Below are positions 1 through 11,149 of a stretch of 64,000 bases of DNA, piece after piece. The stretch comes from Planctomycetaceae bacterium (GTDB lineage Bacteria > Planctomycetota > PLA2), in assembly GCA_011525755.1 (NCBI GenBank), contig WYBS01000033.1:3691-67690 (forward strand), read 5' to 3'. The notes below the pieces were generated by a model. The model saw nothing but the letters and a program-made list of their open reading frames with translations. It was not told the origin of the DNA and ran no database searches. Each line of letters starts with the position of its first letter. Position 1 is the stretch's first letter. A program made the translations under genes and the position numbers.

Positions 1-1776
1 CCCGAAGCCCCCCCAAGCACCTCCCCGGTACCGGCGCAGCATCGTCTGCTCCGACCGGTACCCGTGGTCGGCCTCGACGGCGAGCGAGACCGTGAAATCC
101 GGGCCCCGGATCATCGCGCCCCGGAGCCCGCGCGTGACCTCCCATCCCTCGGGGACCGGACCGAGCCGGATGCCCGAGTAGAGCTCGGGATCGGGCTTGT
201 CGTCGCCGTCGATCTCGAGCGTGCCGTCGTCGTAGACCGCGCGCCGGATGAGGATCGTCGTGCGCTCGGGCGTGATCCGGCCCGCCTCGACCGGCTCGTC
301 CGGCCGCGCGAGCAGGATGTACCGCGCGCGCGTGCCGACCTCGTTCGTCGTCGGGTCCACGCCGATCCAGCGGCCGACCCACACCTCGCACCAGCCGTGC
401 GCGCCCCAGTCGCTGCCGATGTTCACGTAGCCGCTGCACTGCCGCACCGGGATCCCGGCCGCGCGGCAGAGCCCGGTGAAGAGGAGCGCGTGCTCGCTGC
501 AGTCGCCGACCATCTCGTCGAGGATCTGGAGCATCGTCGGCTGGAGGAGCTTCGTGGGGCCCTTGTCGAGGTTCGAGAAGACCCAGTCCGCGATCCGGCG
601 CGCCGCCTCGCGCGCGTCCTTTGCGTCGCCCACGATCTCCTTCGCGAGCTCGCGGGCGCGCGGGGAGTCCACCTCCATGAGCGCGGTCGCCTTCAGGTGC
701 TCCTCGAACCCCTTCGGGTCGATCGGCAGCGGGCAGGTGGCCTCCGGATCGTCGTGGCTCTTGAGCAGGAGCGTCACCCGGTCGTCCGTCCGCTCCTTCA
801 CCTCGGTGAAGGGGCTCTCCGGGATCTTCGGGGGCTTCGCCGTCTCGTCGGTGCGGACGACGACGTCGACGAGCATCTCCCGCGTCGTGAAGATGCGCGG
901 GAGCTCGACGTTCGTCGGGAGCGTGATCCGGTACCGCGCCGGCCGCCGCGGGAGGTCGCCGTGGCGGACGTTGTCGTCGCGGCGGATGACGCGATCCACG
1001 ATGCGCAGCCGCACGACCGAGCCGTCCTCCGCGAACCACCAGAGCGTGTCGTTCCCCTCGACGGTCTCGACGACCTTGAGCCCGGGGCCCTCGTCGTCCG
1101 GCCCGACGACCCGGAGCTTCGCGGTGACCACGCGCTTGCCGCCGAGGAGCGGGATCTCGAACGTCGCGCCCGGCGTCGCCTCGCCCGCCCGGACCTTCTC
1201 CGCGAGGAAAGCCTCGGCATCGACCATGACGGGTTGCCCGGTCGCCACCTCGAAGTTCTCCTCGCTCGCGCCCGCGAGCACCCGGACCTTGTAGCCCGTG
1301 GGCGTGCGCTCGACCCACGACTTGTCGAGGCGCCCCGGCATCCTCGTCTGGGTCTCCTGCGAGATCAGCTCGCCGCCCTCGGTCCGGAGCGTGCGCGAGA
1401 CCGACGAGGAGTCGAACGCCTCGCGGAACCCCGCCATGTCGCGCTCCTCGCGGGAGACGGTCTCGGTGACGTCCTCGACGAGCCTTCTCCCGTCGCGCTC
1501 GACGGCCCTCCACTCGACGCGCATCGTCGCCGCGCGTTGGCCGTTGAGGAGGTGCTCGTAGGTGCGGAGCGCGATCCGCTCCCCGGCGGCGGGGGTGAGG
1601 GTGCCCGCGGGAGCGGGGGTGCGCCCGCCCGACTCGACGGTCGCGACCGCCTCGTAGGTCTTTCCCGCCTCCCGCGCCTCGCCTTCGGCCCCGGCCAGGG
1701 CCGGCGGCGGCGCGTGGGCCTTCCTGTCGTCCGAGCAGGCCGCGAACGCGAGCAGGAGGACGAGGAGGCGCCGCAT
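1..1776 (-). CDS. Transglutaminase-like (TGc) domain lipoprotein, 3'-truncated by window edge
   Basis: Minus-strand frame is the reverse complement of the junk + ORF 64..1896. ATG at 1776 gives MRRLLVLLLAFAACSDD, a signal peptide with a lipobox Cys. The core motif GDCSEHALLFTGLCRAAGIPVRQCSGYV was verified by hand translation of 421-540. The ORF runs past position 1, so it is absent from the ORF track. Confidence 0.7.
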   Translation of the reverse strand, partial: MRRLLVLLLAFAACSDDRKAHAPPPALAGAEGEAREAGKTYEAVATVESGGRTPAPAGTLTPAAGERIALRTYEHLLNGQRAATMRVEWRAVERDGRRLVEDVTETVSREERDMAGFREAFDSSSVSRTLRTEGGELISQETQTRMPGRLDKSWVERTPTGYKVRVLAGASEENFEVATGQPVMVDAEAFLAEKVRAGEATPGATFEIPLLGGKRVVTAKLRVVGPDDEGPGLKVVETVEGNDTLWWFAEDGSVVRLRIVDRVIRRDDNVRHGDLPRRPARYRITLPTNVELPRIFTTREMLVDVVVRTDETAKPPKIPESPFTEVKERTDDRVTLLLKSHDDPEATCPLPIDPKGFEEHLKATALMEVDSPRARELAKEIVGDAKDAREAARRIADWVFSNLDKGPTKLLQPTMLQILDEMVGDCSEHALLFTGLCRAAGIPVRQCSGYVNIGSDWGAHGWCEVWVGRWIGVDPTTNEVGTRARYILLARPDEPVEAGRITPERTTILIRRAVYDDGTLEIDGDDKPDPELYSGIRLGPVPEGWEVTRGLRGAMIRGPDFTVSLAVEADHGYRSEQTMLRRYRGGAWGGFG

Positions 1777-1850
1777 GGGCGCGATTCTACCCGTGTCGGA
1801 CGAACGCGCCGGGGCCGGCGCGGCCGGGCGCGCGGCCGGCCCTGCCCGCG

Positions 1851-3155
1851 CTACCCGAGGTCCGGCGGCATCACCTTCTTGATCCAGGCGCCGTAGTCGC
1901 CGCCGTAGCCCGCCTTCTCCTGGAGCGCCTTCACGCGCTTGCGGATCTCCGCGAGCCTGTCCGGATCGAGCGGCGTCCTCTTGGCGAGGTGGCCCTTCAC
2001 GACCTCGGCTCCCGCGGCGCCGATCGCGCCCGCGAAGTAGTTCTCGTTCAAGTACGTCGCGACCCTCTGCGCGTGGAGGAGCGAGGCGCGGATGTTGCCC
2101 TGCCCCGTGACCACGTTGCCGACGCCGAAGACGCCCTTCTCCGCGTCGTAGACGCCGAGGTCCCAGTCCTTGAAGTCGAACGTCTCGCCCTTCATCCGGA
2201 TCCCCTCGATGGGCTCCGGGATCGACCCGATCGACGAGAGGACGAGCTCCGTCGGGATCACCTCCTCCGAACCCGCGATCGGCGTCGCCTTTCTCCCTTC
2301 GACCTGCGTCCGGACGACCTTCACGCCGGTGACGCGGCCTCCCTGCGTGACGAGCCCGGTCGGCATCGTCCTGTCCTGGAAGCGGAAGAGGAACTTGCCC
2401 TGCGAGATCGAGAGGAGCTTCTCGCGCGCGGCGTAGGCCTTCTCGAGCTCCTCCGGGTCCTTCGCGCCGGACTGCGCGAGCGGCATGTCCTGCTTCCTGC
2501 GGCGGTAGACGAGGATCGCGCCCTTGAGGCCGAGCGATGCGGGGTCGATGCCCTTCGCCTTGCAGACGGCCGGGATCCCCTGCTTCTCCAGCTCGATCAT
2601 CGGGACGTCGATGCCCTTCTCCCTGAGCGCGCGGCCGTAGATCTCGAGCTGGCAGACCTTCACGACGTCGATCGACGCGAGGCCGCCGCCGAAGACGACG
2701 GCGCCGTCCGGCACGTCGATCTTCCGCCCCCGGAACCCCCCCTCCTCCTTGTGGTTGAACCAGTAGATGAACGGGTTCTGGTACTCGAGCCCCTTCCCCA
2801 CGTAGTCCTCGCAGCCGGGGATCCCGAGAGGCCGGTCGCGCCACGCGCCGTTCGCGAGGAGCACGGCGGAGAGGCCCCAGCGGTCGACGAGGTCCGCAAA
2901 GCCGACGTCCTTGCCGAGCTTCGTGCGCGGGAGGAAGTGGATGCGCTCCTTCGAGAGCCGCGCGTCGATCTTCTCGTACTCCTTCTTGCGCTGGTGCGCG
3001 TGCCAGCGCGGGAGGCCATCCTCGATCTTCCCGTAGGGGCGGTCGTTCATCTCGATGACGACGACCTCGGCGCCACCCTCGGCGAGGATCTCCGCGGCGA
3101 CCGATCCCGAGACGGCGCCTCCGACGACGGCAACGAAATGACGCGGCTGCTCCAT
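1851..3155 (-). CDS. FAD/NAD(P)-binding oxidoreductase (glutamate-synthase-small-subunit/FprA-like)
   Basis: 434-aa ORF with an N-terminal Rossmann motif VAVVGGAVSGSVAAEILAEGGAEVVVIE and DRPYGKIEDGLP, similar to the GltD/FprA dinucleotide-binding pattern. ATG at 3155. Confidence 0.75.
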   Translation of the reverse strand: MEQPRHFVAVVGGAVSGSVAAEILAEGGAEVVVIEMNDRPYGKIEDGLPRWHAHQRKKEYEKIDARLSKERIHFLPRTKLGKDVGFADLVDRWGLSAVLLANGAWRDRPLGIPGCEDYVGKGLEYQNPFIYWFNHKEEGGFRGRKIDVPDGAVVFGGGLASIDVVKVCQLEIYGRALREKGIDVPMIELEKQGIPAVCKAKGIDPASLGLKGAILVYRRRKQDMPLAQSGAKDPEELEKAYAAREKLLSISQGKFLFRFQDRTMPTGLVTQGGRVTGVKVVRTQVEGRKATPIAGSEEVIPTELVLSSIGSIPEPIEGIRMKGETFDFKDWDLGVYDAEKGVFGVGNVVTGQGNIRASLLHAQRVATYLNENYFAGAIGAAGAEVVKGHLAKRTPLDPDRLAEIRKRVKALQEKAGYGGDYGAWIKKVMPPDLG

Positions 3156-3178
3156 CCGACAAACGATACGGTACGGGG

Positions 3179-3207
3179 AGAGTTTTTACGAAACTCGTGA
3201 CATTGAC
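3179..3207. repeat. Left REP-like inverted repeat flanking Y1 transposase gene (gagtttttacgaaactcgtgacattgaca)
   Basis: Its reverse complement recurs at 4380-4404 (tgtcacgagtttcgcaaaaatc). About 22-24 bp imperfect match of the form ttttRcgaaactcgtgacaWt. Confidence 0.6.
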
Positions 3208-3313
3208 ACCTGCGCGCGACACATGCGCACGCCGGTTCGCGCGCCCCGAATTTGTGACACCTCCTCCCGACTAATAGATGTGGATTTCCGCGTACATTCC
3301 CCCGAGGCCTCCC

Positions 3314-4354
3314 ATGCCGCGCGCCGCTCGTCGTGACGAGGCGGGTGCGTGGCACCATGTCATGGGGCGCGGCATCGCGAAGCGCACCATCTTCGAGTGC
3401 CGCGAGGACTTCCGGTACTTCCAGTCGCTGCTCGCGCGGGTCATGCGGCGCGGGCTGCTCGAGGTTCACCTGTTCGCGCTTCTCCAGACCCACTTCCACC
3501 TGCTCGTCCGGAGCCCCGTGGGCACGCTCTCGCAGGCGATGGGGGACGTGCTTCGGCGCTACGCGCGCTGGTTCAACCGCCGCCGCGGGCGCGACGGGGC
3601 CCTCTTCAAGGAGCCGTTCAAGTCGAAGCTCGTGGACAGCGACGCCTACCGGTCCGTACTCGTGCGCTACATCGACCAGAACCCCGTGAAGGCGCGTCTG
3701 GCGTCGCGCGCGACCGGCTACCCCTACTGCAGCGCATTCCACTATGCGCGAGGCGGGGGGCCGCGCTGGCTCGAGCGCAGCTGGGTCGAGCAGGAGGTGA
3801 AGGGGGTCCGGGGGGTCGAGGCGTACGACCCGAGAGACTACGACGTGCGATTCCCCCCCAAGCTCCCGGCGCCGGTCGCGGACTGGATCGAGGACCAGCT
3901 CCTGCGGGGCCGGGACGCCGATCTCGTGGCTCCGTGCGAGGAGTCGCAGGTGGCTTGGATGGTCCGCAAGGCGCTGCTCGCGGACGGCACCGAGCCGTTC
4001 CGGCTACCGCTCCCTCCGGCGTTGGTCCAGGAGGAGTGGGAGCGTCTGCGGGCGCAAGAGGCGGAGTGGCCCGTGCGCGCCTCCCGACAGCCCGAGGGGC
4101 TCTGGTCCGCGCTTCACGCCGGCCTCCTGCGGCGCGCGTGCGGGCTATCGCTCCGGGAGATACGAGCGCGGACGGGCGAGGCGCTCTCGACCATCGCGAG
4201 CCGGGTCAGCCGCCACGACGCCTGCGTGCGGGAGTCCGACGAATACGCGCGCCGCGCGGCGCAGGTTGTCGTGTGCGTCCAGCGACGCCTGACCCGCGAG
4301 TCCCATCCGCATCGGTTCCTGCCGTCCGACGCGGACTCGGCCCTGACGGGCTGA
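3314..4354 (+). CDS. IS200-like / REP-associated tyrosine (Y1, HUH) transposase with about 190-aa C-terminal extension carrying an HTH-like segment
   Basis: HVMGRGIAKRTIF...LLEVHLFALLQTHFHLLVRSP contains the HuH motif, and RYIDQNPVKARL carries the catalytic Tyr region. This matches PF01797/COG1943. The C-terminal GLSLREIRARTGEALSTIASRVSRH resembles a sigma70-r4/LuxR-type HTH. ATG at 3314, or the frame could open at 3278. Confidence 0.7.
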   Translation: MPRAARRDEAGAWHHVMGRGIAKRTIFECREDFRYFQSLLARVMRRGLLEVHLFALLQTHFHLLVRSPVGTLSQAMGDVLRRYARWFNRRRGRDGALFKEPFKSKLVDSDAYRSVLVRYIDQNPVKARLASRATGYPYCSAFHYARGGGPRWLERSWVEQEVKGVRGVEAYDPRDYDVRFPPKLPAPVADWIEDQLLRGRDADLVAPCEESQVAWMVRKALLADGTEPFRLPLPPALVQEEWERLRAQEAEWPVRASRQPEGLWSALHAGLLRRACGLSLREIRARTGEALSTIASRVSRHDACVRESDEYARRAAQVVVCVQRRLTRESHPHRFLPSDADSALTG

Positions 4355-4379
4355 CACCTCCTCCGGGGGAGGGCCCGGC

Positions 4380-4404
4380 CTCGATTGTCACGAGTTTCGC
4401 AAAA
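4380..4404. repeat. Right REP-like inverted repeat
   Basis: Reverse complement matches the 3179-3207 repeat. Confidence 0.6.
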
Positions 4405-4421
4405 ATCCTCCCCGTACCGCA

Positions 4422-5486
4422 TCACTCCTGCACGAAGCGGCCGAAGCGGGCCTTGTCGCTCGCCTTCCGGTAGGCCTCCTCGCCCGAGATCATGCCCTCG
4501 CTCGCGAGGCGGAAGAGCGAGTCGTCCATCCGGTGCATGCCCTCGGCCCTGCCGGCCTGCAGCATCGACTCGATCTTGTGCGCCGCGCCCTCGCGGATCA
4601 CGCTCTTCAATGCCGTGGACGTGAAGAGCAGCTCGGTCGCGGGGATGCGCCCCTCGACGTCCGAGCGCCGGCAGAGGATCTGCGACAGCACGCCCTGGAG
4701 CGACTCCGCGAGCATCGAGCGGATCTGGAGCTGCTGCTCCTCCGGGAAGACCTCGACGATCCGGTCGATCGTCCGGCCCGCGCTGTTCGTGTGGAGCGTG
4801 CTGAAGACGAGCATGCCCATCTCGGCGAGCGTCAGCGCGGAGTGGATCGTCTCCCTGTCGCGCATCTCGCCGACGAGGAGGAGGTCGGGGTCCTGGCGCG
4901 CCGCGGACTTGAGCGCCGCCGCGAACGAGTCCGTGTCGCGGCCGACCTCGCGCTGCGTGAAGGTGGACTCGACGTCGATGTGCATGTACTCGATCGGGTC
5001 CTCGATCGTCACGATGTGCCGCTTCTCGCGCAGGTTGATCATCGCGAGGAGCGCGGCGAGCGTGCTGCTCTTGCCGCTGCCCGTCGGGCCGGTGACGAGC
5101 ACGAGCCCGCTCTGCACGTCCGCGAAGCGCGCGACCTCGGGCGGCAGGCTCAGCTCCTCGAGCGTCGGGATGCGCCGCGGGATCAGCCGGAACACGGCGC
5201 CGATCCCGCCCTGGTGGCGGAAGACGTTCACGCGGAAGCGCCCCGCCCCCTCGACCGCGTACGCGAGGTCGGTCTCGCCGAACCGCTCGAAGATCCCCCT
5301 GTGCCGCTCGTCGAGGACCGGCGCGATGAGCTTCTCGACCGGCGCCGTGGGCACGTCGAGCGGCTCGAGCGCGCCGTGGACGCGGACCTTCGGCGGGAGG
5401 CCGTCGAGGAGGTGCAGGTCGGAGCCCGACCTCTCGACCACCTGCCGGAGCAGGTCGTCCACGTGCGGCTTCGTGCTACCCGGCAT
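4422..5486 (-). CDS. pilT: Type IV pilus retraction ATPase PilT
   Basis: ASDLHL, Walker A GPTGSGKSST, Walker B DLLLVGEMRD, TLHTNSA. 354 aa, ATG at 5486. Confidence 0.9.
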   Translation of the reverse strand: MPGSTKPHVDDLLRQVVERSGSDLHLLDGLPPKVRVHGALEPLDVPTAPVEKLIAPVLDERHRGIFERFGETDLAYAVEGAGRFRVNVFRHQGGIGAVFRLIPRRIPTLEELSLPPEVARFADVQSGLVLVTGPTGSGKSSTLAALLAMINLREKRHIVTIEDPIEYMHIDVESTFTQREVGRDTDSFAAALKSAARQDPDLLLVGEMRDRETIHSALTLAEMGMLVFSTLHTNSAGRTIDRIVEVFPEEQQLQIRSMLAESLQGVLSQILCRRSDVEGRIPATELLFTSTALKSVIREGAAHKIESMLQAGRAEGMHRMDDSLFRLASEGMISGEEAYRKASDKARFGRFVQE

Positions 5487-6519
5487 CCTCGAACCTCTTC
5501 CGGTTTTTCGCGTGGCGCGCGGCCGTGGCGCGGTCGATGAGGCCCTCCGCGACCATCTCCTGGAGCCTCGCGTCGAGGTCGATCATCCCCTGGCGGCGGC
5601 CTGTCTGGAGCTGCGAGGCGATCTGGTGCGTGCGGCCGTCCCGGATGACGTGCGCGACCGCGGGGGTCACCTGCAGGATCTCGTACGCGGGCACGCGCCG
5701 GCCGCCGCCGAGCCGCGGCAGCAGGCGCTGCGAGATCACCGTGCGGAGCGACGCCGCGATCATCGTGCGGATCTGCTCCTGCTCGGCGGGGGGGAAGACG
5801 TCGATGAGCCGGCTCACGGTCGAGGCGGCGTCGCGCGTGTGCAGCGTGCCGAGGACGAGGTGGCCGGTCTCGGCGGCGACGACCGCGGTGCGGATCGTCT
5901 CGACGTCGCGCAGCTCGGAGACGAGGATCACGTTCGGGTCCTCGCGCAGCGCGGCGCGGAGCGCGCGCGAGAAGGAGCGCGTGTGCGGCCCGACCTGCCG
6001 CTGCGTCACGTTGCACCCCTCGCTCGGGAACACGAACTCGATCGGGTCCTCGATCGTGACGATGTGCTCCTTGCGCGAGCGGTTCACCTGCTGGAGCAGC
6101 GCCGCGAGCGTGCAGGTCTTGCCGCAGCCGGCCGGCCCCGTCGCGAGCACCATCCCCGTGCGGAACCACGTCGCCTCGTTCAAGGACTCCGGGAGACCGA
6201 GTTCCGCGAGCGGCTGGACCGCGACCGGGATGCACTTGATCGCGAGCGCCGCGCCGCGCGCGTGGCGGTGCAGGTTGACGCGGAAGCGGCCGAGATCCCC
6301 CGTCTCGAAGCAGAAGTCCACGTCGCTCCCGGGCGCGACGCCTCCGCGTTTCGCGCACGCGGCGCCGAGCGCGTCCGCCTCCTGCGTGTCGATCTCCTCC
6401 CGCGGGAGCCGCGCGATCTCGCCCTCGACGCGCACGTAGGGGACGGCGCCCGCGGAGATGTGGAGGTCCGACGCGCCGCGCCGCCGCGCCTCCGCGAGGA
6501 ACTCCTCGAGCGTGGTCAA
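5476..6519 (-). CDS. PilT/PilU-family hexameric ATPase paralogue
   Basis: ASDLHISAG, Walker A GPAGCGKTCT, ILVSELRD, TLHTRDA. Uses a TTG start at 6519 (ccccattgaccacg). Overlaps pilT by 11 nt. Confidence 0.85.
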   Translation of the reverse strand: MTTLEEFLAEARRRGASDLHISAGAVPYVRVEGEIARLPREEIDTQEADALGAACAKRGGVAPGSDVDFCFETGDLGRFRVNLHRHARGAALAIKCIPVAVQPLAELGLPESLNEATWFRTGMVLATGPAGCGKTCTLAALLQQVNRSRKEHIVTIEDPIEFVFPSEGCNVTQRQVGPHTRSFSRALRAALREDPNVILVSELRDVETIRTAVVAAETGHLVLGTLHTRDAASTVSRLIDVFPPAEQEQIRTMIAASLRTVISQRLLPRLGGGRRVPAYEILQVTPAVAHVIRDGRTHQIASQLQTGRRQGMIDLDARLQEMVAEGLIDRATAARHAKNRKRFEDAG

Positions 6520-6541
6520 TGGGGGGGCTCCGGGGGCGCGC

Positions 6542-6979
6542 TCAGCCTTTCAACCACTCGATCTTCCCGCCCGGCAGGAAGTAGATCATGAACATCGCGC
6601 CGCCAAGGACGTTCGCGGGGTGGGTCGTGCCCGGCGGGTAGACGATCCAGCCCGGCGGGTCGCCGTCGAAGGTCGGCGAGCCCTCGTAGGCGAAGCAGAA
6701 GTTGATCTCGCCCGCGGGGTGCGTGTGGCGCATCCCCTTGCCGCGGGAGAGGACGCAGTCGACCGAGAAGCCGCTGCGGTCCTTCGCGAGGCGGCCGAAG
6801 CGCGTCGATCCCGCCTCCTTCGGGCAGAGAGCGTCGGCGTGCTCCCGGCAGAGTTCCCGGAGCTCGGGCAGGTCGCCGAAGCGCGCTGCGAGGGAGCGCT
6901 CGGTCGCCGCCTTGTCGGCGAGGTCGCAGGTCCTCAGGTGGTCGAGGACCGGGTCGAGGTGCTTCCAGATCGCGTCCAT
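6542..6979 (-). CDS. Conserved hypothetical protein (DUF4863-like), about 145 aa
   Basis: ATG at 6979 is preceded by GAAGGAGG 10 nt upstream. Contains HTHPAGEINFCFAYEGSPTFDGDPPGWIVYPPGTTH. The family assignment is from memory and is tentative. Confidence 0.45.
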   Translation of the reverse strand: MDAIWKHLDPVLDHLRTCDLADKAATERSLAARFGDLPELRELCREHADALCPKEAGSTRFGRLAKDRSGFSVDCVLSRGKGMRHTHPAGEINFCFAYEGSPTFDGDPPGWIVYPPGTTHPANVLGGAMFMIYFLPGGKIEWLKG

Positions 6980-7002
6980 CGCTCCGCCGCCTCCTTCAAG
7001 CT

Positions 7003-7923
7003 TCACTCCACCGTGAAGGGCAGCTCGTTCGACTCGCCGTCGTCGAGCAGCTCGAAGATGTCCGTGCCGGGGTCCGTGTAGGGATCGACGACGGCGTAGG
7101 CCACGATCACGTCGCCGACGAGCGGGAAGTTGACGGTGCGGATGTTGAAGACCCGCGTTCCCCTCCGGTCGTTGATGCGCGGGATTGCGTCCTCCGAGAT
7201 GAGGATGCCCGCGACCGTGCAGACGGTCTCCACGGGGCCGCGCGACGGCGCGACGTAGAAGACCTGGGTGTCGGTCGGCTGCGGGAGCGGAGCGCCCGCG
7301 CCGTCGACGGGCAGGAAGGGCACGAGCCCGACCGCCGCGTCGGGGCCGACCGCGACGTGGAGGAGCCCCGGCACGGCGCCCGTGGGCACCGTGGCGGTGA
7401 TCGTCGTGTCGGTCGAGGAGACCACGGCCCCCTCCACCCCCCCGAAGAAGACGCGCAGGGCGCCCGCCGCGAAGCCGCTGCCGCCGATCGTCACCGTGGC
7501 GCCCTCCTGCGCGGTATCGGGCGTCACGCTCGCGAGCGTGGGCCCGGTGTAGGGCAGCGCCTCGTAGGTCGCGGTGTCGAGCACGTCGCCGCCCGTCTGG
7601 AGGTAGACCTCCGCGAGCTGCGGCACGCCGAGGGGCGGCGGGTCGAGCGTGAGGACCGCATACTCGCCGCCGATGGTCATGTCGGCCGTGCGGTCGACGC
7701 CGTTGACGACGAGGCGGAGGACGGTCGTCGGGTCGAAGTCCAGGGAGTCCGACGCCATCTTCACCGCGATCTGGAGCGCGGGCCCGTCGGAGACGACGAC
7801 CTGCCCGTCGCCGCGTTCGCCTTGGACCGCGAACCGCTCGGGCCGCACGAAGTCGAACTCCGGGCTGCAGGCGGGAAGGAGGAGGAGCGCGAGGAGGAGG
7901 GAGGATCGCCGCACGCGGGACAT
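7003..7923 (-). CDS. IPT/TIG-domain lipoprotein
   Basis: ATG at 7923 gives MSRVRRSSLLLALLLLPACSPEF (lipobox). TIG-like segment ASVTPDTAQEGATVTIGGSGFAAG...TTITATVP. Its ATG overlaps the TAA of the upstream permease (TAATG). Confidence 0.6.
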   Translation of the reverse strand: MSRVRRSSLLLALLLLPACSPEFDFVRPERFAVQGERGDGQVVVSDGPALQIAVKMASDSLDFDPTTVLRLVVNGVDRTADMTIGGEYAVLTLDPPPLGVPQLAEVYLQTGGDVLDTATYEALPYTGPTLASVTPDTAQEGATVTIGGSGFAAGALRVFFGGVEGAVVSSTDTTITATVPTGAVPGLLHVAVGPDAAVGLVPFLPVDGAGAPLPQPTDTQVFYVAPSRGPVETVCTVAGILISEDAIPRINDRRGTRVFNIRTVNFPLVGDVIVAYAVVDPYTDPGTDIFELLDDGESNELPFTVE

Positions 7924-9374
7924 TATTGCCGCAGTTTCGGGTCGAGGGCGTCTCGGAGCCCCTCGCCGACGAGATTGAGGATCGTGACCGTGAAGAAGAT
8001 CGCGAAGCCGGGCCCGTGGATGAGCCAGTGCTCCTTGGTCTGCCGCCCCTGCAGCAGCACCTGCCCCCAGGAGGGCACGTTGGGGTCGCCGAGACCGAGG
8101 AAGGCGAGGCCCGACTCCAGGAGGATCGCGGACGCCACGCCGAACGTCGCGGTCACGAAGATCGGGTGGATCGCGTTCGGCAGGATGTGCTTGAAGACGA
8201 TCCTCCGCTGCGGGATGCCGAGCGCGCGCGCCGCGAATACGTAGTCGAGGCCGCGCTCGGACAGGAACTGGCCGCGGATGAGGCGTGCCGCGCCCGTCCA
8301 CCCGATGATCCCGATCGCGAACATGATCATGAAGATGTTCTTCTTCCCGGTGACCGCGACGAGGATCAGGATGAAGGCGAAGCTCGGGAAGCAGAGCATG
8401 ATCTCGACGAGGCGCATGCCGAGGATATCGACCCAGCGGCCGAAGTACCCCATGAGCGAGCCGAGGATCGTCCCGATCGTGCAGTAGATCGAGACCGCGA
8501 CGACGCCGATCGTCAGCGACACGCGCGTCCCGTAGAGGAGCATCGCGAAGACGTCGCGGCCGTTGCGGTCCGTGCCGAGAGGGTGCCACGTCCCCCAGCC
8601 GCCCTTGAGCGTCGGCGCCTCGACGATGCGCTCCTCGTCGTTGTCGTCGTGGTGATAGCCGAAGGGGGGGAGCGCCATCGTGTAGCCGAGGGCCGGGTCC
8701 TCCTGCATCTCGAGCGCCCGTGCGCGCCGCTCCTTCCACTTGGCGATCTCGCGTTCCGCGGTGTCGGCGCGCTCGCGTGCGGCGAGGCGGTCCGCCTCCG
8801 CGTTCGACCGCGCGGACCCCGCGAGGGCTCCCTCGCCGAGGCGCGCCTCCACGCCCGCGATCACGCCCTGCGCCTCCCGCAGCTTCCTCTCGAAGCTTCG
8901 GAGCTTCACGTCGGAAAGGACGACGTCGAGATCGGGCGCACGGATGGCGAGGTAATCGATCTTCGGCCGCGAATAGTGGAAGGGGCCGGAGGGGAGCAGG
9001 ATGAGCATGTAGACGGCGACGAGCGCCGCCGCGCCGACCGTGACCATCGTGCGCCGCTGCCGGCCCCGCGTGGAGCGCCAGAGGAGGAGGCCGGGAACCA
9101 GCGCTACGAGCAGGAGGTTGAAGAAGAGGTCGACGCCGCTCGGGAACCGGTTCTGGTCGAAGAGATCCGAGAACCACGGGAAGCGCGGCGTGCGGGCCGC
9201 CTCGGGATGGCCCTCGGGCAGCGAGATGTAGAAGGGCGAGCTCGTGCAGAAGACCGGCGCGAGGATCGCGAGGACGAAGAGGACCGCGAGCATCCGCAGG
9301 CCCCAGACGGCCATGCGGTTCTTCGCGAACTGGGTCCGGACGATGTCCCAGTAGGTCTTTTCCGGGGCGATCAC
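7923..9374 (-). CDS. ABC transporter permease, OppC/DppC family, with about 180-aa insertion (2 extra TM helices + coiled coil)
   Basis: GTG start overlaps the upstream stop (GTGA) at 9374. Conserved HPLGTDRNGRDVFAMLLYGTRVSL and the C-terminal EAA-loop region are present. The insert VDLFFNLLLVALVPGLLLW...KLRSFERKLREAQ...EREIAKWKERRARALE lies between TM1 and the conserved core. Confidence 0.85.
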   Translation of the reverse strand: MIAPEKTYWDIVRTQFAKNRMAVWGLRMLAVLFVLAILAPVFCTSSPFYISLPEGHPEAARTPRFPWFSDLFDQNRFPSGVDLFFNLLLVALVPGLLLWRSTRGRQRRTMVTVGAAALVAVYMLILLPSGPFHYSRPKIDYLAIRAPDLDVVLSDVKLRSFERKLREAQGVIAGVEARLGEGALAGSARSNAEADRLAARERADTAEREIAKWKERRARALEMQEDPALGYTMALPPFGYHHDDNDEERIVEAPTLKGGWGTWHPLGTDRNGRDVFAMLLYGTRVSLTIGVVAVSIYCTIGTILGSLMGYFGRWVDILGMRLVEIMLCFPSFAFILILVAVTGKKNIFMIMFAIGIIGWTGAARLIRGQFLSERGLDYVFAARALGIPQRRIVFKHILPNAIHPIFVTATFGVASAILLESGLAFLGLGDPNVPSWGQVLLQGRQTKEHWLIHGPGFAIFFTVTILNLVGEGLRDALDPKLRQ

Positions 9375-11149
9375 GAGAAGCTGATCCTCGGGTCGACGAC
9401 CGCGTAGAGGAGATCCGAGAGCAGGATGCCGAGCATCGTGAGCACGGCCACGATGAGGTCGACCCCCACGATCACGTTGTAGTCCCGGGCGCCGATCGAC
9501 TCGATCGTCAGGAGGCCGAAACCCGGGATGGAGAAGATCCACTCGATGACGAAGCTGCCGCCGACGATCACCGGGAGCGTCGTGCCGAGCAGCGTGATGA
9601 TCGGGATGATGCCGTTCCGCGCCGCGTGCTTCACGGTGACCGCGAATTCGCCGACGCCCTTGGCGCGCGCCGTGCGGACGTAGTCGCTCCGGATCACGTG
9701 GAGGACGCCTGTTTTCGCGTAGCGGCTGAGCGCGGCGAACGAGGCGTAGGTCATGCAGAAGATGGGGGCGAGGACGTGCCACGCGATGTCCTTGACCCAC
9801 TCCCACGACGGAAGCGACCACGCCTCGAGGCTCTCGAACCGGTCGGGCGGGATGATCCCGAGGGAGCCGGGCTGGCCTTCCGCGAGGTAGCGCACGGCGA
9901 GCGTCGCGACGTAGAAGGACGGCAGCGAGTAGAGCGCGAAGAGGACGAAGCTGATGCCGCGCTCGGTCCGCGAGCCGTGGATCTTCGCGCTCGTGATGCC
10001 GAGGGGTACGGAGATGAGGTAGGCGAGGACGAGGGACGAGAGCGCGAGGGTGAGGCTGTATTTGAGACGCTCGAAGACGAGCGTCATCACCGGGACCTTG
10101 TGGACAAGGGAGTTCCCGAAATCGAAGCGCAGGAGGTTCCCCCAATAGGTGGCGAACTGCGTCTCGAGGAGGAGGACGCGCAGCCACCGGAGGCCGCCGT
10201 AGTCCCAGCGCGACTTCGCGCCCTCCCACCAGGTGCGGAAGGCAGCGGCGCCGCCCTCCTTCGTGAGAGGCGGGTCGGCGGGCGCCCACGCCAGGCGATC
10301 CAGGATCGTGTTCCGGAGCCGTGCGACCTCGCGTTGCGCCTCGTCGCCCTCCTCGGGGAGCCGCGCCGCCTTCGCGAACCACCGCACCGCGGCGTCGCGG
10401 ATCGCCTCGTCCTCGCCCAGGACGAGCGCGGCGAGCGCGGATGCCGCCGCGGCACCCAGCCGGTCCAGGGCCGCGCCGTCATTCGCGAGCAGCGCCTGCC
10501 GGACGGCGCCCTCGTCGGCGCCGGGCGGGTACTCCCGGCCCGCGCCGTCGTACCACGTGCGGACCGCCGCGATGCCCGCCCGCCTGCGCGCCTCGCTCGC
10601 GTCCGCCGGCCAGCCGCAGATCTCGAGGATCGCGTTCTCGCGCACGATCTCCGCGTTCTTCCGGGCGCGTGCCGGCCGGACCTTTCCCTCCTCCTCGCCC
10701 ACGGCGACGCGCTGCGCGCTCCGCACGAGCCATCCCATGGCCTGGTCGCGGAGGGGACCCTCCGTGTCGGCGACGATCGCGAGGAACGCCGGCGTCGCGT
10801 ACTCGCCCCACTTGATGAGCTGCTCCTGCGCCTCGCTCCGGACCTTGATCTCGCGCGACCGCTCGAGATCGACCGCGTCCTCGAGCGTGCGCCGGACCTC
10901 GTCGACGGGCAGGTCGTAGCAGGTATTGAGGATCGTCGGCTTGTCGAGCCCGTACTGGGCCCGGAAGACCTTGACCGCGCTCGGCACGCCGCCCGCCTGC
11001 TCCCGCGCGGTGCCGCCCTCGGCGGAAGTCGGCACCTGCTGCACGATGGGCGGCTCGGGCGCACCCGCCACCACGACCCAGACGACCAGGGAGACCCCGA
11101 AGAACGTCGGGATCATGAGGAGGAGCCGCTTGAGGAGATAGGTCCTCAC
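9371..11149 (-). CDS. ABC transporter permease, OppB/DppB family, with about 330-aa alpha-helical insertion after TM1
   Basis: GTG at 11149 overlaps the solute-binding-protein stop (GTGA). N-terminus VRTYLLKRLLLMIPTFFGVSL. Conserved TQFATYWGNLLRFDFGNS...IESIGARDYNVIVG. 592 aa, versus about 310 aa for a typical OppB. Confidence 0.85.
   Translation of the reverse strand: MRTYLLKRLLLMIPTFFGVSLVVWVVVAGAPEPPIVQQVPTSAEGGTAREQAGGVPSAVKVFRAQYGLDKPTILNTCYDLPVDEVRRTLEDAVDLERSREIKVRSEAQEQLIKWGEYATPAFLAIVADTEGPLRDQAMGWLVRSAQRVAVGEEEGKVRPARARKNAEIVRENAILEICGWPADASEARRRAGIAAVRTWYDGAGREYPPGADEGAVRQALLANDGAALDRLGAAAASALAALVLGEDEAIRDAAVRWFAKAARLPEEGDEAQREVARLRNTILDRLAWAPADPPLTKEGGAAAFRTWWEGAKSRWDYGGLRWLRVLLLETQFATYWGNLLRFDFGNSLVHKVPVMTLVFERLKYSLTLALSSLVLAYLISVPLGITSAKIHGSRTERGISFVLFALYSLPSFYVATLAVRYLAEGQPGSLGIIPPDRFESLEAWSLPSWEWVKDIAWHVLAPIFCMTYASFAALSRYAKTGVLHVIRSDYVRTARAKGVGEFAVTVKHAARNGIIPIITLLGTTLPVIVGGSFVIEWIFSIPGFGLLTIESIGARDYNVIVGVDLIVAVLTMLGILLSDLLYAVVDPRISFS

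Follow-up and report, generated by a model that had tools for sequence, protein, structure and literature searches.

What kind of element fills the gap between an oxidoreductase gene and a pilT gene in a planctomycete genome? The gap (3156-4421) lies on a 64,000-nucleotide stretch of contig WYBS01000033.1 from a Planctomycetaceae bacterium (assembly GCA_011525755.1), referred to below as the window. Its two neighbouring genes are both on the minus strand. The element takes up all of the space between them and carries one open reading frame (ORF) on the plus strand (3314-4354, 346 aa), bracketed by two inverted repeats. An earlier note on this DNA had read the gene as a Y1/HUH transposase of about 346 aa between repeats resembling repetitive extragenic palindromes (REPs); the enzyme class and the length proved correct, the class of the repeats did not. 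The region is probably a TIRtron, made up of the gene for a terminal inverted repeat (TIR)-associated tyrosine transposase (TIRYT) and two cognate TIRs of 38 nt, with a protein similar to TnpA-Y1 subclass 2.1, the RAYT group 1 of Bertels and colleagues. The element in the window behaves as a resident cassette, found once in the 64 kb and not proliferated there. It belongs to a kind of element that has already been named, of which it is a well-documented and fairly ordinary example, and is not a new system. Worth following are the terminal box shared by the family, the footprints at the end junctions and the polymorphism of the chromosomal slot.

Terminal inverted repeats

The two arms of the repeat (3165-3202 and 4386-4423) are 38 nt long and 89% complementary. 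An inverted repeat had been reported before at 3179-3207 and 4380-4404; it does exist, but those coordinates were shifted and the 22-24 bp given for it fell short of the full 38 nt. Its 20-nt core, TTTTTRCGAAACTCGTGACA, occurs exactly twice in the window when up to three mismatches are allowed, with no occurrence expected from 100 shuffles. No further copy of the repeat was found in the 64 kb, where the outer 12-mer adds one match that is probably due to chance. A scan with TTTTNCGAAACTCGTGACA of a genome collection that does not include the source genome returned nine single chance matches, all in unrelated genomes.

Relatives of the window protein were collected in a search of 5.8 billion proteins, which yielded 471. 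The best 120 of these 471 are all about 320-400 aa long and encoded by one ORF, with an identity of 40-75% and a query coverage of mostly 84-100% (about 70% for two of them). The relatives listed are mostly from metagenome-assembled genomes (MAGs) of Planctomycetota, with Thermoanaerobaculia in addition. Hundreds of lineages, the majority of them Planctomycetota MAGs, share the whole architecture of the 346-aa protein. For the comparison of loci, 80 metagenomic loci were used together with 15 further distinct loci found via exact-protein look-up.

Almost every homologue for which both flanks were available is bracketed by an inverted repeat. When the arms were stacked on their outer ends, conservation started exactly at a purine followed by TAC and ran for 13 nt, giving a family-wide outer box R-TAC-S-G-W-G-Y-C-A-G-G, which reads ATACGGTACCGGG in the clade of the window. 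Inward of the box lie an A/T-rich stretch and then a lineage-specific inner part, and no conservation was seen outside the R-TAC boundary across the stacked arms. Neither a target-site duplication nor a conserved target motif was detected at any of four assumed end offsets. The locus and its about 80 relatives define a testable substrate, namely the 13-nt outer box, located exactly where the repeat ends, and the lineage-specific inner part.

The repeats are terminal inverted repeats and not REPs, because single arms fold no better than shuffled sequence. For 85 arms the mean z-score against shuffled sequence was -0.13, with 4.7% of the arms below -2, and the arms of the window scored -0.58 (left) and +0.37. 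Candidate hairpins seen by eye inside single arms (GAGTTT/AAACTC in the window, GTCC/GGAC in locus L008) were rejected after this folding. The GTAG/CGTC foot is likewise absent from the arms, which open with R-TAC-S-G. With no hairpin potential, no GTAG foot and no extra copy in the window, the description of the repeats as REP-like could not be maintained. The inner box was also considered as a DnaA box, to which only 5-6 of nine positions correspond by eye, and this likeness was not counted as evidence.

Repeat copies at a distance from the gene are rare among the homologous loci, with 11 in 215 kb of flanks, at six of 44 loci. Palindromic doublets composed of two inverted copies were found at one or both flanks of about eight of the 44 loci, for example L013, L063, L078, L083 and L088. 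In the window and in L100, a related locus treated below, the two arms of one locus resemble each other more than they resemble those of the other locus. Concerted evolution of the arms as a general rule was discarded, since the lineage of L008 and L102 has clearly different left and right arms.

Protein architecture and relation to known Y1 systems

The motif THFHLLV covers residues 59-65 of the protein, with the HuH motif at H60-F-H62 (codons 3491-3499), and the catalytic tyrosine is Y119 (codon 3668-3670) within YIDQNP. These motifs, on which the transposase assignment had been based, contain the active-site residues that are invariant across the 32 members of a family alignment, in which H60, H62, Y119, I120, D121, N123 and S140 show no variation. 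Two profile models match aa 15-139 of the protein, both below their thresholds: Pfam Y1_Tnp with 22.1 bits (gathering cut-off 23, E-value 1.7e-4) and NCBIfam REP_Tyr_transpos (NF047646) with 52.3 bits (equivalog cut-off 80). A check with RAYT models, as proposed earlier, was in this respect negative. The AlphaFold2 model of the full protein has a mean pLDDT of 81.7, exceeding 90 across the core and low for aa 200-230. Its top Foldseek match is E. coli TnpA-REP with a REP hairpin (4er8_A, E-value 4.6e-6, TM-score 0.69), followed by the TnpA proteins of IS608, ISDra2 and IS200 (2a6o and 2f4f among the matches). Of the earlier assignment to a RAYT or IS200-like TnpA, the first half came nearer, as both the Y---NP motif and the fold that matched best place the protein closer to RAYTs than to IS200.

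The core is followed by a middle helical region, for which no match was found in Pfam or the Protein Data Bank (PDB). Among the 32 aligned sequences, W152, E159, Y176, W215 and D224 are conserved or invariant columns of this region. Near the C-terminus, a helix-turn-helix (HTH) of the LuxR/sigma-r4 type had been predicted, and the presence of an HTH was borne out. The motif GLSLREIRARTGEALSTIASRVSRH spans aa 277-301 (4142-4216); Sigma70_r4_2 matches six of the 32 family members (best E-value 1.1e-6) and HTH_23 five of them (best E-value 6.5e-7). A separate model of the C-terminal part reached a pLDDT of 91-97 across the HTH domain, and Foldseek placed DnaA domain IV at the top (3pvp_A with TM-score 0.75 and 1j1v_A with 0.69, target-normalised, but at non-significant E-values), ahead of sigma-factor region 4. 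A profile search of the PDB with the C-terminal 206 aa gave only non-significant HTH matches, namely sigma-E region 4 (E-value 0.038), TetR and DnaA domain IV (E-value 0.4-0.7). The HTH is real and its subtype is DnaA-IV/sigma-4-like.

Is the long extension part of the enzyme? A profile of the C-terminal 206 aa was run against 1.84 billion cluster representatives (50% identity) and matched 952, of which 376 reached an E-value of 1e-30 or lower. In full-length proteins these matches begin at about residue 125-141, behind a Y1 core, and all others are fragments. Because the profile matches never stand alone in full-length proteins, the extension is an integral, conserved part of one protein. The possibility raised before, that it could be an independent ORF, is ruled out by these results together with the single-ORF architecture of the homologues. 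For annotation this means one gene and not a fusion artefact, best named TIR-associated tyrosine transposase and not 'RayT' or 'IS200-like'.

TIRYTs, which correspond to RAYT group 1 and TnpA-Y1 subclass 2.1, form the largest group of RAYT-like proteins. RAYT-like genes with terminal inverted repeats instead of REPs were described by Di Nocera, De Gregorio and Rocco (2013, BMC Genomics 14:522, PMC3733652), who named the proteins TIRYTs and the units TIRtrons; the repeats of TIRtrons are often confined to the gene or moderately repeated, sometimes as dimers or clusters. Most TIRYTs fall into TnpA-Y1 subclass 2.1 of Quentin, Siguier, Chandler and Fichant (2018, PMC6006769), whose members lack REPs and are long, with an HTH domain (Bac_DnaA_C, HTH_23, HTH_28) at the C-terminus. 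Its counterpart in the scheme of Bertels et al. (2017, PMC5581495), RAYT group 1, is the group of RAYTs most similar to insertion sequences (ISs), with duplicates for about 6% of its members, a few members on plasmids and flanking 16-mers at about 12 occurrences per replicon.

The profile of the present family was scored against eleven sequences from Additional file 5 of PMC3733652. The long TIRYTs reached 126 bits (sml_4509 and sml_1152), 102 (pfs_148A), 100 (rba_2408), 94 (gsu_2396) and 88 bits (aba_2776), in matches that span profile positions 1 to about 150. An Acidobacteria-type TIRYT obtained 39 bits and the RAYTs of E. coli and P. putida 21-27 bits. Since the scores of the family profile on TIRYTs are far above those on RAYTs, the core of the window protein is TIRYT- or subclass 2.1-like.

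With the published TIRYTs the element shares a Y1/HUH protein that resembles RAYTs but exceeds them in length, TIRs other than REPs around the gene, repeats that are low in copy number or confined to the gene flanks, and dimers or clusters at some loci. It differs in the length of the protein (346 aa against about 216-238 aa) and in the outer box, R-TAC-S-G-W-G-Y-C-A-G-G, where the published motif, present in many but not all TIRs, is GGGGWSAS. In the window only the left arm contains GGGGAGAG (3175-3182), and the right arm has GGGGAGGA; relatives have CCGGGTC or CCGGGAA, so that the motif in the left arm may be coincidental. With subclass 2.1, and 2.1.2 in particular, it has in common the Y---NP signature (YIDQNP in the window), a serine that is conserved behind the Tyr helix, a long extension at the C-terminus similar to HTH_23 and Bac_DnaA_C, the lack of a REP beside the gene, a low copy number and a patchy distribution. 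Here the differences are a tyrosine motif of YIDxNP instead of YIELNP or Y[IV]HLNP, a median length in the family of about 340 aa compared with 238 aa, and a family centred on MAGs of Planctomycetota and Acidobacteriota, which are scarce in the data set of PMC6006769.

The other relatives stand further away. E. coli TnpA-REP (YafM, 4er8) and its REPtron resemble the element in the solved structure that matches best, the Y---NP motif, the single-copy gene and the inverted repeats on both sides; that RAYT, however, has about 165 aa and no HTH, and its GTAG-footed hairpin repeats are present in hundreds of copies, neither of which applies here. The TnpA proteins of the IS200/IS605 family (IS608, ISDra2) share the HUH/Tyr fold and the lack of a target-site duplication. 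Their other traits, a Y---Q motif, differing subterminal hairpins without inverted repeats, multiple identical copies and a frequent tnpB, are not those of the window, in which the motif is Y---N, the ends are hairpin-free inverted repeats and the gene is found once.

Occupation of the slot and proposed action at the repeat ends

An identical protein is encoded on eight contigs or assemblies, always at the same locus, and the window contains a single copy of the gene. The same locus with identical junctions was also found in L100 (GCA_964401975.1), where the element protein (P0005) is 70% identical to that of the window and the flanking proteins are 83-89% identical. Between these two loci the ratio of nonsynonymous to synonymous substitution (dN/dS) of the element gene is 0.27, compared with 0.27-0.29 for the pilT genes, at a dS of 0.72 for the element gene and 0.33-0.45 for the flanks. 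From the slot of the closest relatives by flanking genes, L104 (93.5-94.7% identity) and L105 (90-92%), the element is absent. There the slot (1699-3891 in L104, 2480-3898 in L105) holds a secreted protein of 471/472 aa with a signal peptide, accompanied in L104 by a methyltransferase, and in L107 (1062-4004) it holds an ORF of 980 aa.

The borders of the slot differ along with its content. The oxidoreductase ATG is preceded in L104, L105 and L106 (3960-4003 each) by a promoter-like GGAATCCCTTTG..CCTAGACT. In the window CCTAGACT is missing and the left repeat has taken its place, 9 nt from the ATG (3153-3165). Because of this spacing and the loss of the ancestral promoter, transcription of the oxidoreductase gene probably starts inside the element or reads through it. 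At the other border, PilT ends in ..RFVQE* in the window and L100, in ..RFVEGM* in L104 and in ..RFAREE* in L105; the last three residues of PilT co-vary with the occupant of the slot.

Homologues of 55-63% identity are situated at unrelated loci. Their neighbourhoods include an epimerase and an unknown gene, a pstS-like gene and FTCD, a position beside OEP/MacB and one within a MoxR-DUF58-VWA operon. In this last locus (L006, 5834-7118) a family member with its repeats follows the stop codon of the MoxR AAA+ gene and precedes the DUF58 start, and duplicates of the outer repeat abut both of these coding sequences.

Whether such genes are domesticated or mobile had been left to a comparison of loci, and the comparison gave something of both: relative to L100 the element has been kept vertically under purifying selection, and it is absent from the slot of the closest relatives, with homologues at unrelated loci elsewhere. 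The slot is variable and the element in it an accessory cassette, which arrived by insertion or by homologous exchange of the slot and was then kept under purifying selection. Presence or absence at a single chromosomal slot among close relatives bears directly on the question of a domesticated resident against a mobile element.

Possible traces of activity were found at the ends of several family members. The terminal 6-16 nt are partially duplicated in tandem in L005, L006, L046, L052, L061, L075 and L089. In L062 (contig Ga0163148_10001106, 2740-4770) a complete copy stands amid 3'-truncated left-end and 5'-truncated right-end fragments, and the fragment junctions are exact (...CAGAA/GTACGG... 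and ...CCGTAC/..., with the slash at the junction). Natural junctions of this form, .../GTACGG and CCGTAC/..., mark the ends of the element. The arrays in L062 resemble one-ended or abortive copying, and judged from sequence the tandem end duplications and the L062 junctions may have been left by cleavage and rejoining of DNA at the outer box. In one of the L062 fragments a fresh left end is fused to the initial 243 nt of the gene, and a second family member, L055, is located about 7 kb from the L062 copy.

A mode of action for the TIRtron can be proposed along these lines. The HTH domain would dock on each repeat at its inner, double-stranded portion, and the HUH/Tyr core, which is probably dimeric as in other Y1 enzymes, would nick and rejoin one strand at the outer box, with the cut at or beside the R/TAC boundary. 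To our knowledge, all Y1 enzymes with a solved structure are dimers. The outcome could be an occasional copying or movement of the repeat-bounded unit, one-ended fragments, or doublets of the repeat. Excision of the whole unit as a single strand in the manner of IS608 is not expected, because the same sequence is found on opposite strands at the two ends.

Several points weigh against the TIRtron assignment and the action proposed for it. The C-terminal 190 aa of the window protein cannot be aligned to the TIRYTs of Di Nocera and colleagues, and two motifs of the core deviate from subclass 2.1, THFH (mostly T-H-F-H in the family, with few N) against NH[VYF]H, and F-[KR] (PFKS in the window, RF[RK]S in the family) in place of the W[EQ]/FQ motif. 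The fold matches of the tail to DnaA domain IV are not significant (E-value 0.19-0.32). The main mechanistic gap is that identical ends on opposite strands do not fit the one-strand 'peel and paste' of IS200/IS605. We infer from sequence where the enzyme cuts and what its HTH does, and no biochemical study of any TIRYT was found in a literature search that was not exhaustive. Presence in the window and L100 and absence in L104 and L105 could, moreover, reflect an exchange of the slot by homologous recombination and not transposition.

The family of 340-aa proteins could also form a distinct, undescribed lineage of repeat-bounded Y1/HUH elements. The universal 13-nt terminal box would then be the nick site, a DnaA-IV-like tail would replace hairpin recognition, whole units or one-ended fragments would be copied by a nick-and-replicate route similar to rolling circles, and the copies would land in tiny gaps at gene boundaries, replacing the promoters of their neighbours as at the slot between pilT and the oxidoreductase gene. 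Taken jointly, these propositions appear doubtful.

It is rather unlikely that the 1.26-kb repeat-bounded unit is an autonomous IS, transposing as a whole and recently inserted between pilT and the oxidoreductase gene. On either side a repeat directly adjoins the neighbouring coding sequence, the slot is otherwise occupied in the closest relatives, different clades carry the element at unrelated loci with one copy within an operon, and the dS of the gene exceeds that of its flanks, all of which would suit an insertion; the nested and truncated copies of L062 include segments of the gene, and group 1 is the most IS-like group of RAYTs (PMC5581495). An IS of this kind is, however, at odds with the single copy in 64 kb and the lack of identical copies at different loci, all eight contigs with the identical protein representing one locus. 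L100 has kept the same junctions at 70% protein identity and a dN/dS of 0.27, neither a target-site duplication nor a conserved target was found, and no known Y1 enzyme moves a double-stranded unit bounded by TIRs.

A canonical REPtron, in which a domesticated RAYT is accompanied by repeats from an abundant REP/REPIN family dispersed by the enzyme, is very unlikely. The best solved structure is indeed that of the E. coli RAYT with its REP hairpin, JGI annotates homologues as 'REP element-mobilizing transposase RayT', inverted repeats do bracket the gene, and the palindromic doublets and few dispersed copies at some homologous loci recall REPINs. Genomes rich in REPs carry roughly one per 5-10 kb. 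Set against this, the 64 kb contain no additional copy even with three mismatches allowed, the arms are non-palindromic and lack the GTAG/CGTC foot, the RAYT model of NCBIfam gives 52 bits against a cut-off of 80, and the family profile scores four to five times higher on TIRYTs than on RAYTs.

A domesticated regulator, whose HTH would bind the repeats as operators for the oxidoreductase gene and/or pilT while the HUH domain no longer processes DNA, is the least credible reading and highly improbable: an HTH is present, the left repeat overlaps the only region that could hold a promoter for the oxidoreductase gene, CCTAGACT, which is promoter-like in the relatives, is missing and the transposase gene is under purifying selection, but the catalytic residues (His, His, Tyr and Asn) do not vary among 32 diverse members, homologues retain their own repeats beside unrelated neighbours, and the terminal duplications and truncated-copy junctions point to cleavage and joining of DNA.

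Further features of the locus

The features of the TIRtron and its two neighbours are listed in Table 1.

Table 1. Positions of the TIRtron features and the adjacent genes in the window.
Feature	Position	Strand	Remarks
Oxidoreductase gene, NAD(P)/FAD type	1851-3155	minus	434 aa
Left TIR	3165-3202	plus	38-nt inverted repeat; outer end 9 nt from the oxidoreductase start codon (3155)
Left TIR, outer box	3165-3178		GATACGGTACGGGG
Left TIR, spacer	3179-3188		A/T-rich
Left TIR, inner box	3189-3202		CGAAACTCGTGACA
Window-specific insert, left TIR to promoter-proximal region	3204-3271	plus	Diverged 17-nt direct repeat at its bounds
Conserved upstream motif CGACTAATAGATG	3268-3280	plus	Conserved alignment columns; relatives CG(A/T)CGTATAGG
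TIRYT gene, N-terminal Y1/HUH core (aa 1-150)	3314-3763	plus	Pfam/NCBIfam matches, invariant columns, model, fold match
TIRYT gene, middle helical region (aa 151-235)	3764-4018	plus	Family motifs GPxWLERxWxE and W215-xRKAxLADG
TIRYT gene, C-terminal HTH domain (aa ~236-335), short tail, stop codon	4019-4354	plus	Profile matches, model, fold matches
Spacer 3' of the TIRYT stop	4352-4385	plus	13-nt direct repeat and a CCTCC/GGAGG self-complementary stretch
Right TIR	4386-4423	minus	Minus-strand sequence GATGCGGTACGGGGAGGATTTTTGCGAAACTCGTGACA; outer end overlaps the pilT stop codon (4422-4424)
PilT-type ATPase gene (pilT)	4422-5486	minus	Stop codon 4422-4424

An alternative ATG at 3278 would extend the TIRYT to 358 aa. 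This start is unlikely and the one at 3314 (MPRAARRD...) is favoured, because the N-terminus of the family reads MPRxxRxD. Upstream of the gene, an alignment with seven related upstream regions showed a 48-nt insertion that is unique to the window. The 17-nt direct repeat bounding the insert reads TGACACCTGCGCGCGAC at 3204-3220 and TGACACCTCCTCCCGAC at 3255-3271. An exact direct repeat of 13 nt, TGACACCTCCTCC, was also observed at 3255-3267, upstream of the gene, and at 4352-4364, where it overlaps the TIRYT stop. The conserved upstream motif may serve the TIRYT gene as a -10-like promoter element, and scans of 3000-4600 gave neither a sigma-70 consensus promoter nor an intrinsic terminator. 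The intergenic region 3156-3313 had been singled out as richer in A and T, and this is correct, with a GC content of 0.59 in 3101-3300 compared with about 0.70 around it. Since another intergenic region, at 8301-8500, has a comparable dip, the one beside the TIRYT gene is an ordinary intergenic dip.

Downstream, two PilT/PilU-type ATPase genes are arranged in tandem on the minus strand (4422-6519), encoding proteins of 354 and 347 aa with about 42% mutual identity and overlapping by 11 nt; the same gene order was found in L100, L104 and L105. Many long overlapping ORFs of 300-800 aa are present on both strands in 64-9400 of the window, for example at 64-1896, 1989-3200, 4492-6591 and 7923-10382. 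These are typical of a genome with 70% GC, mostly non-genes and easily mis-annotated.

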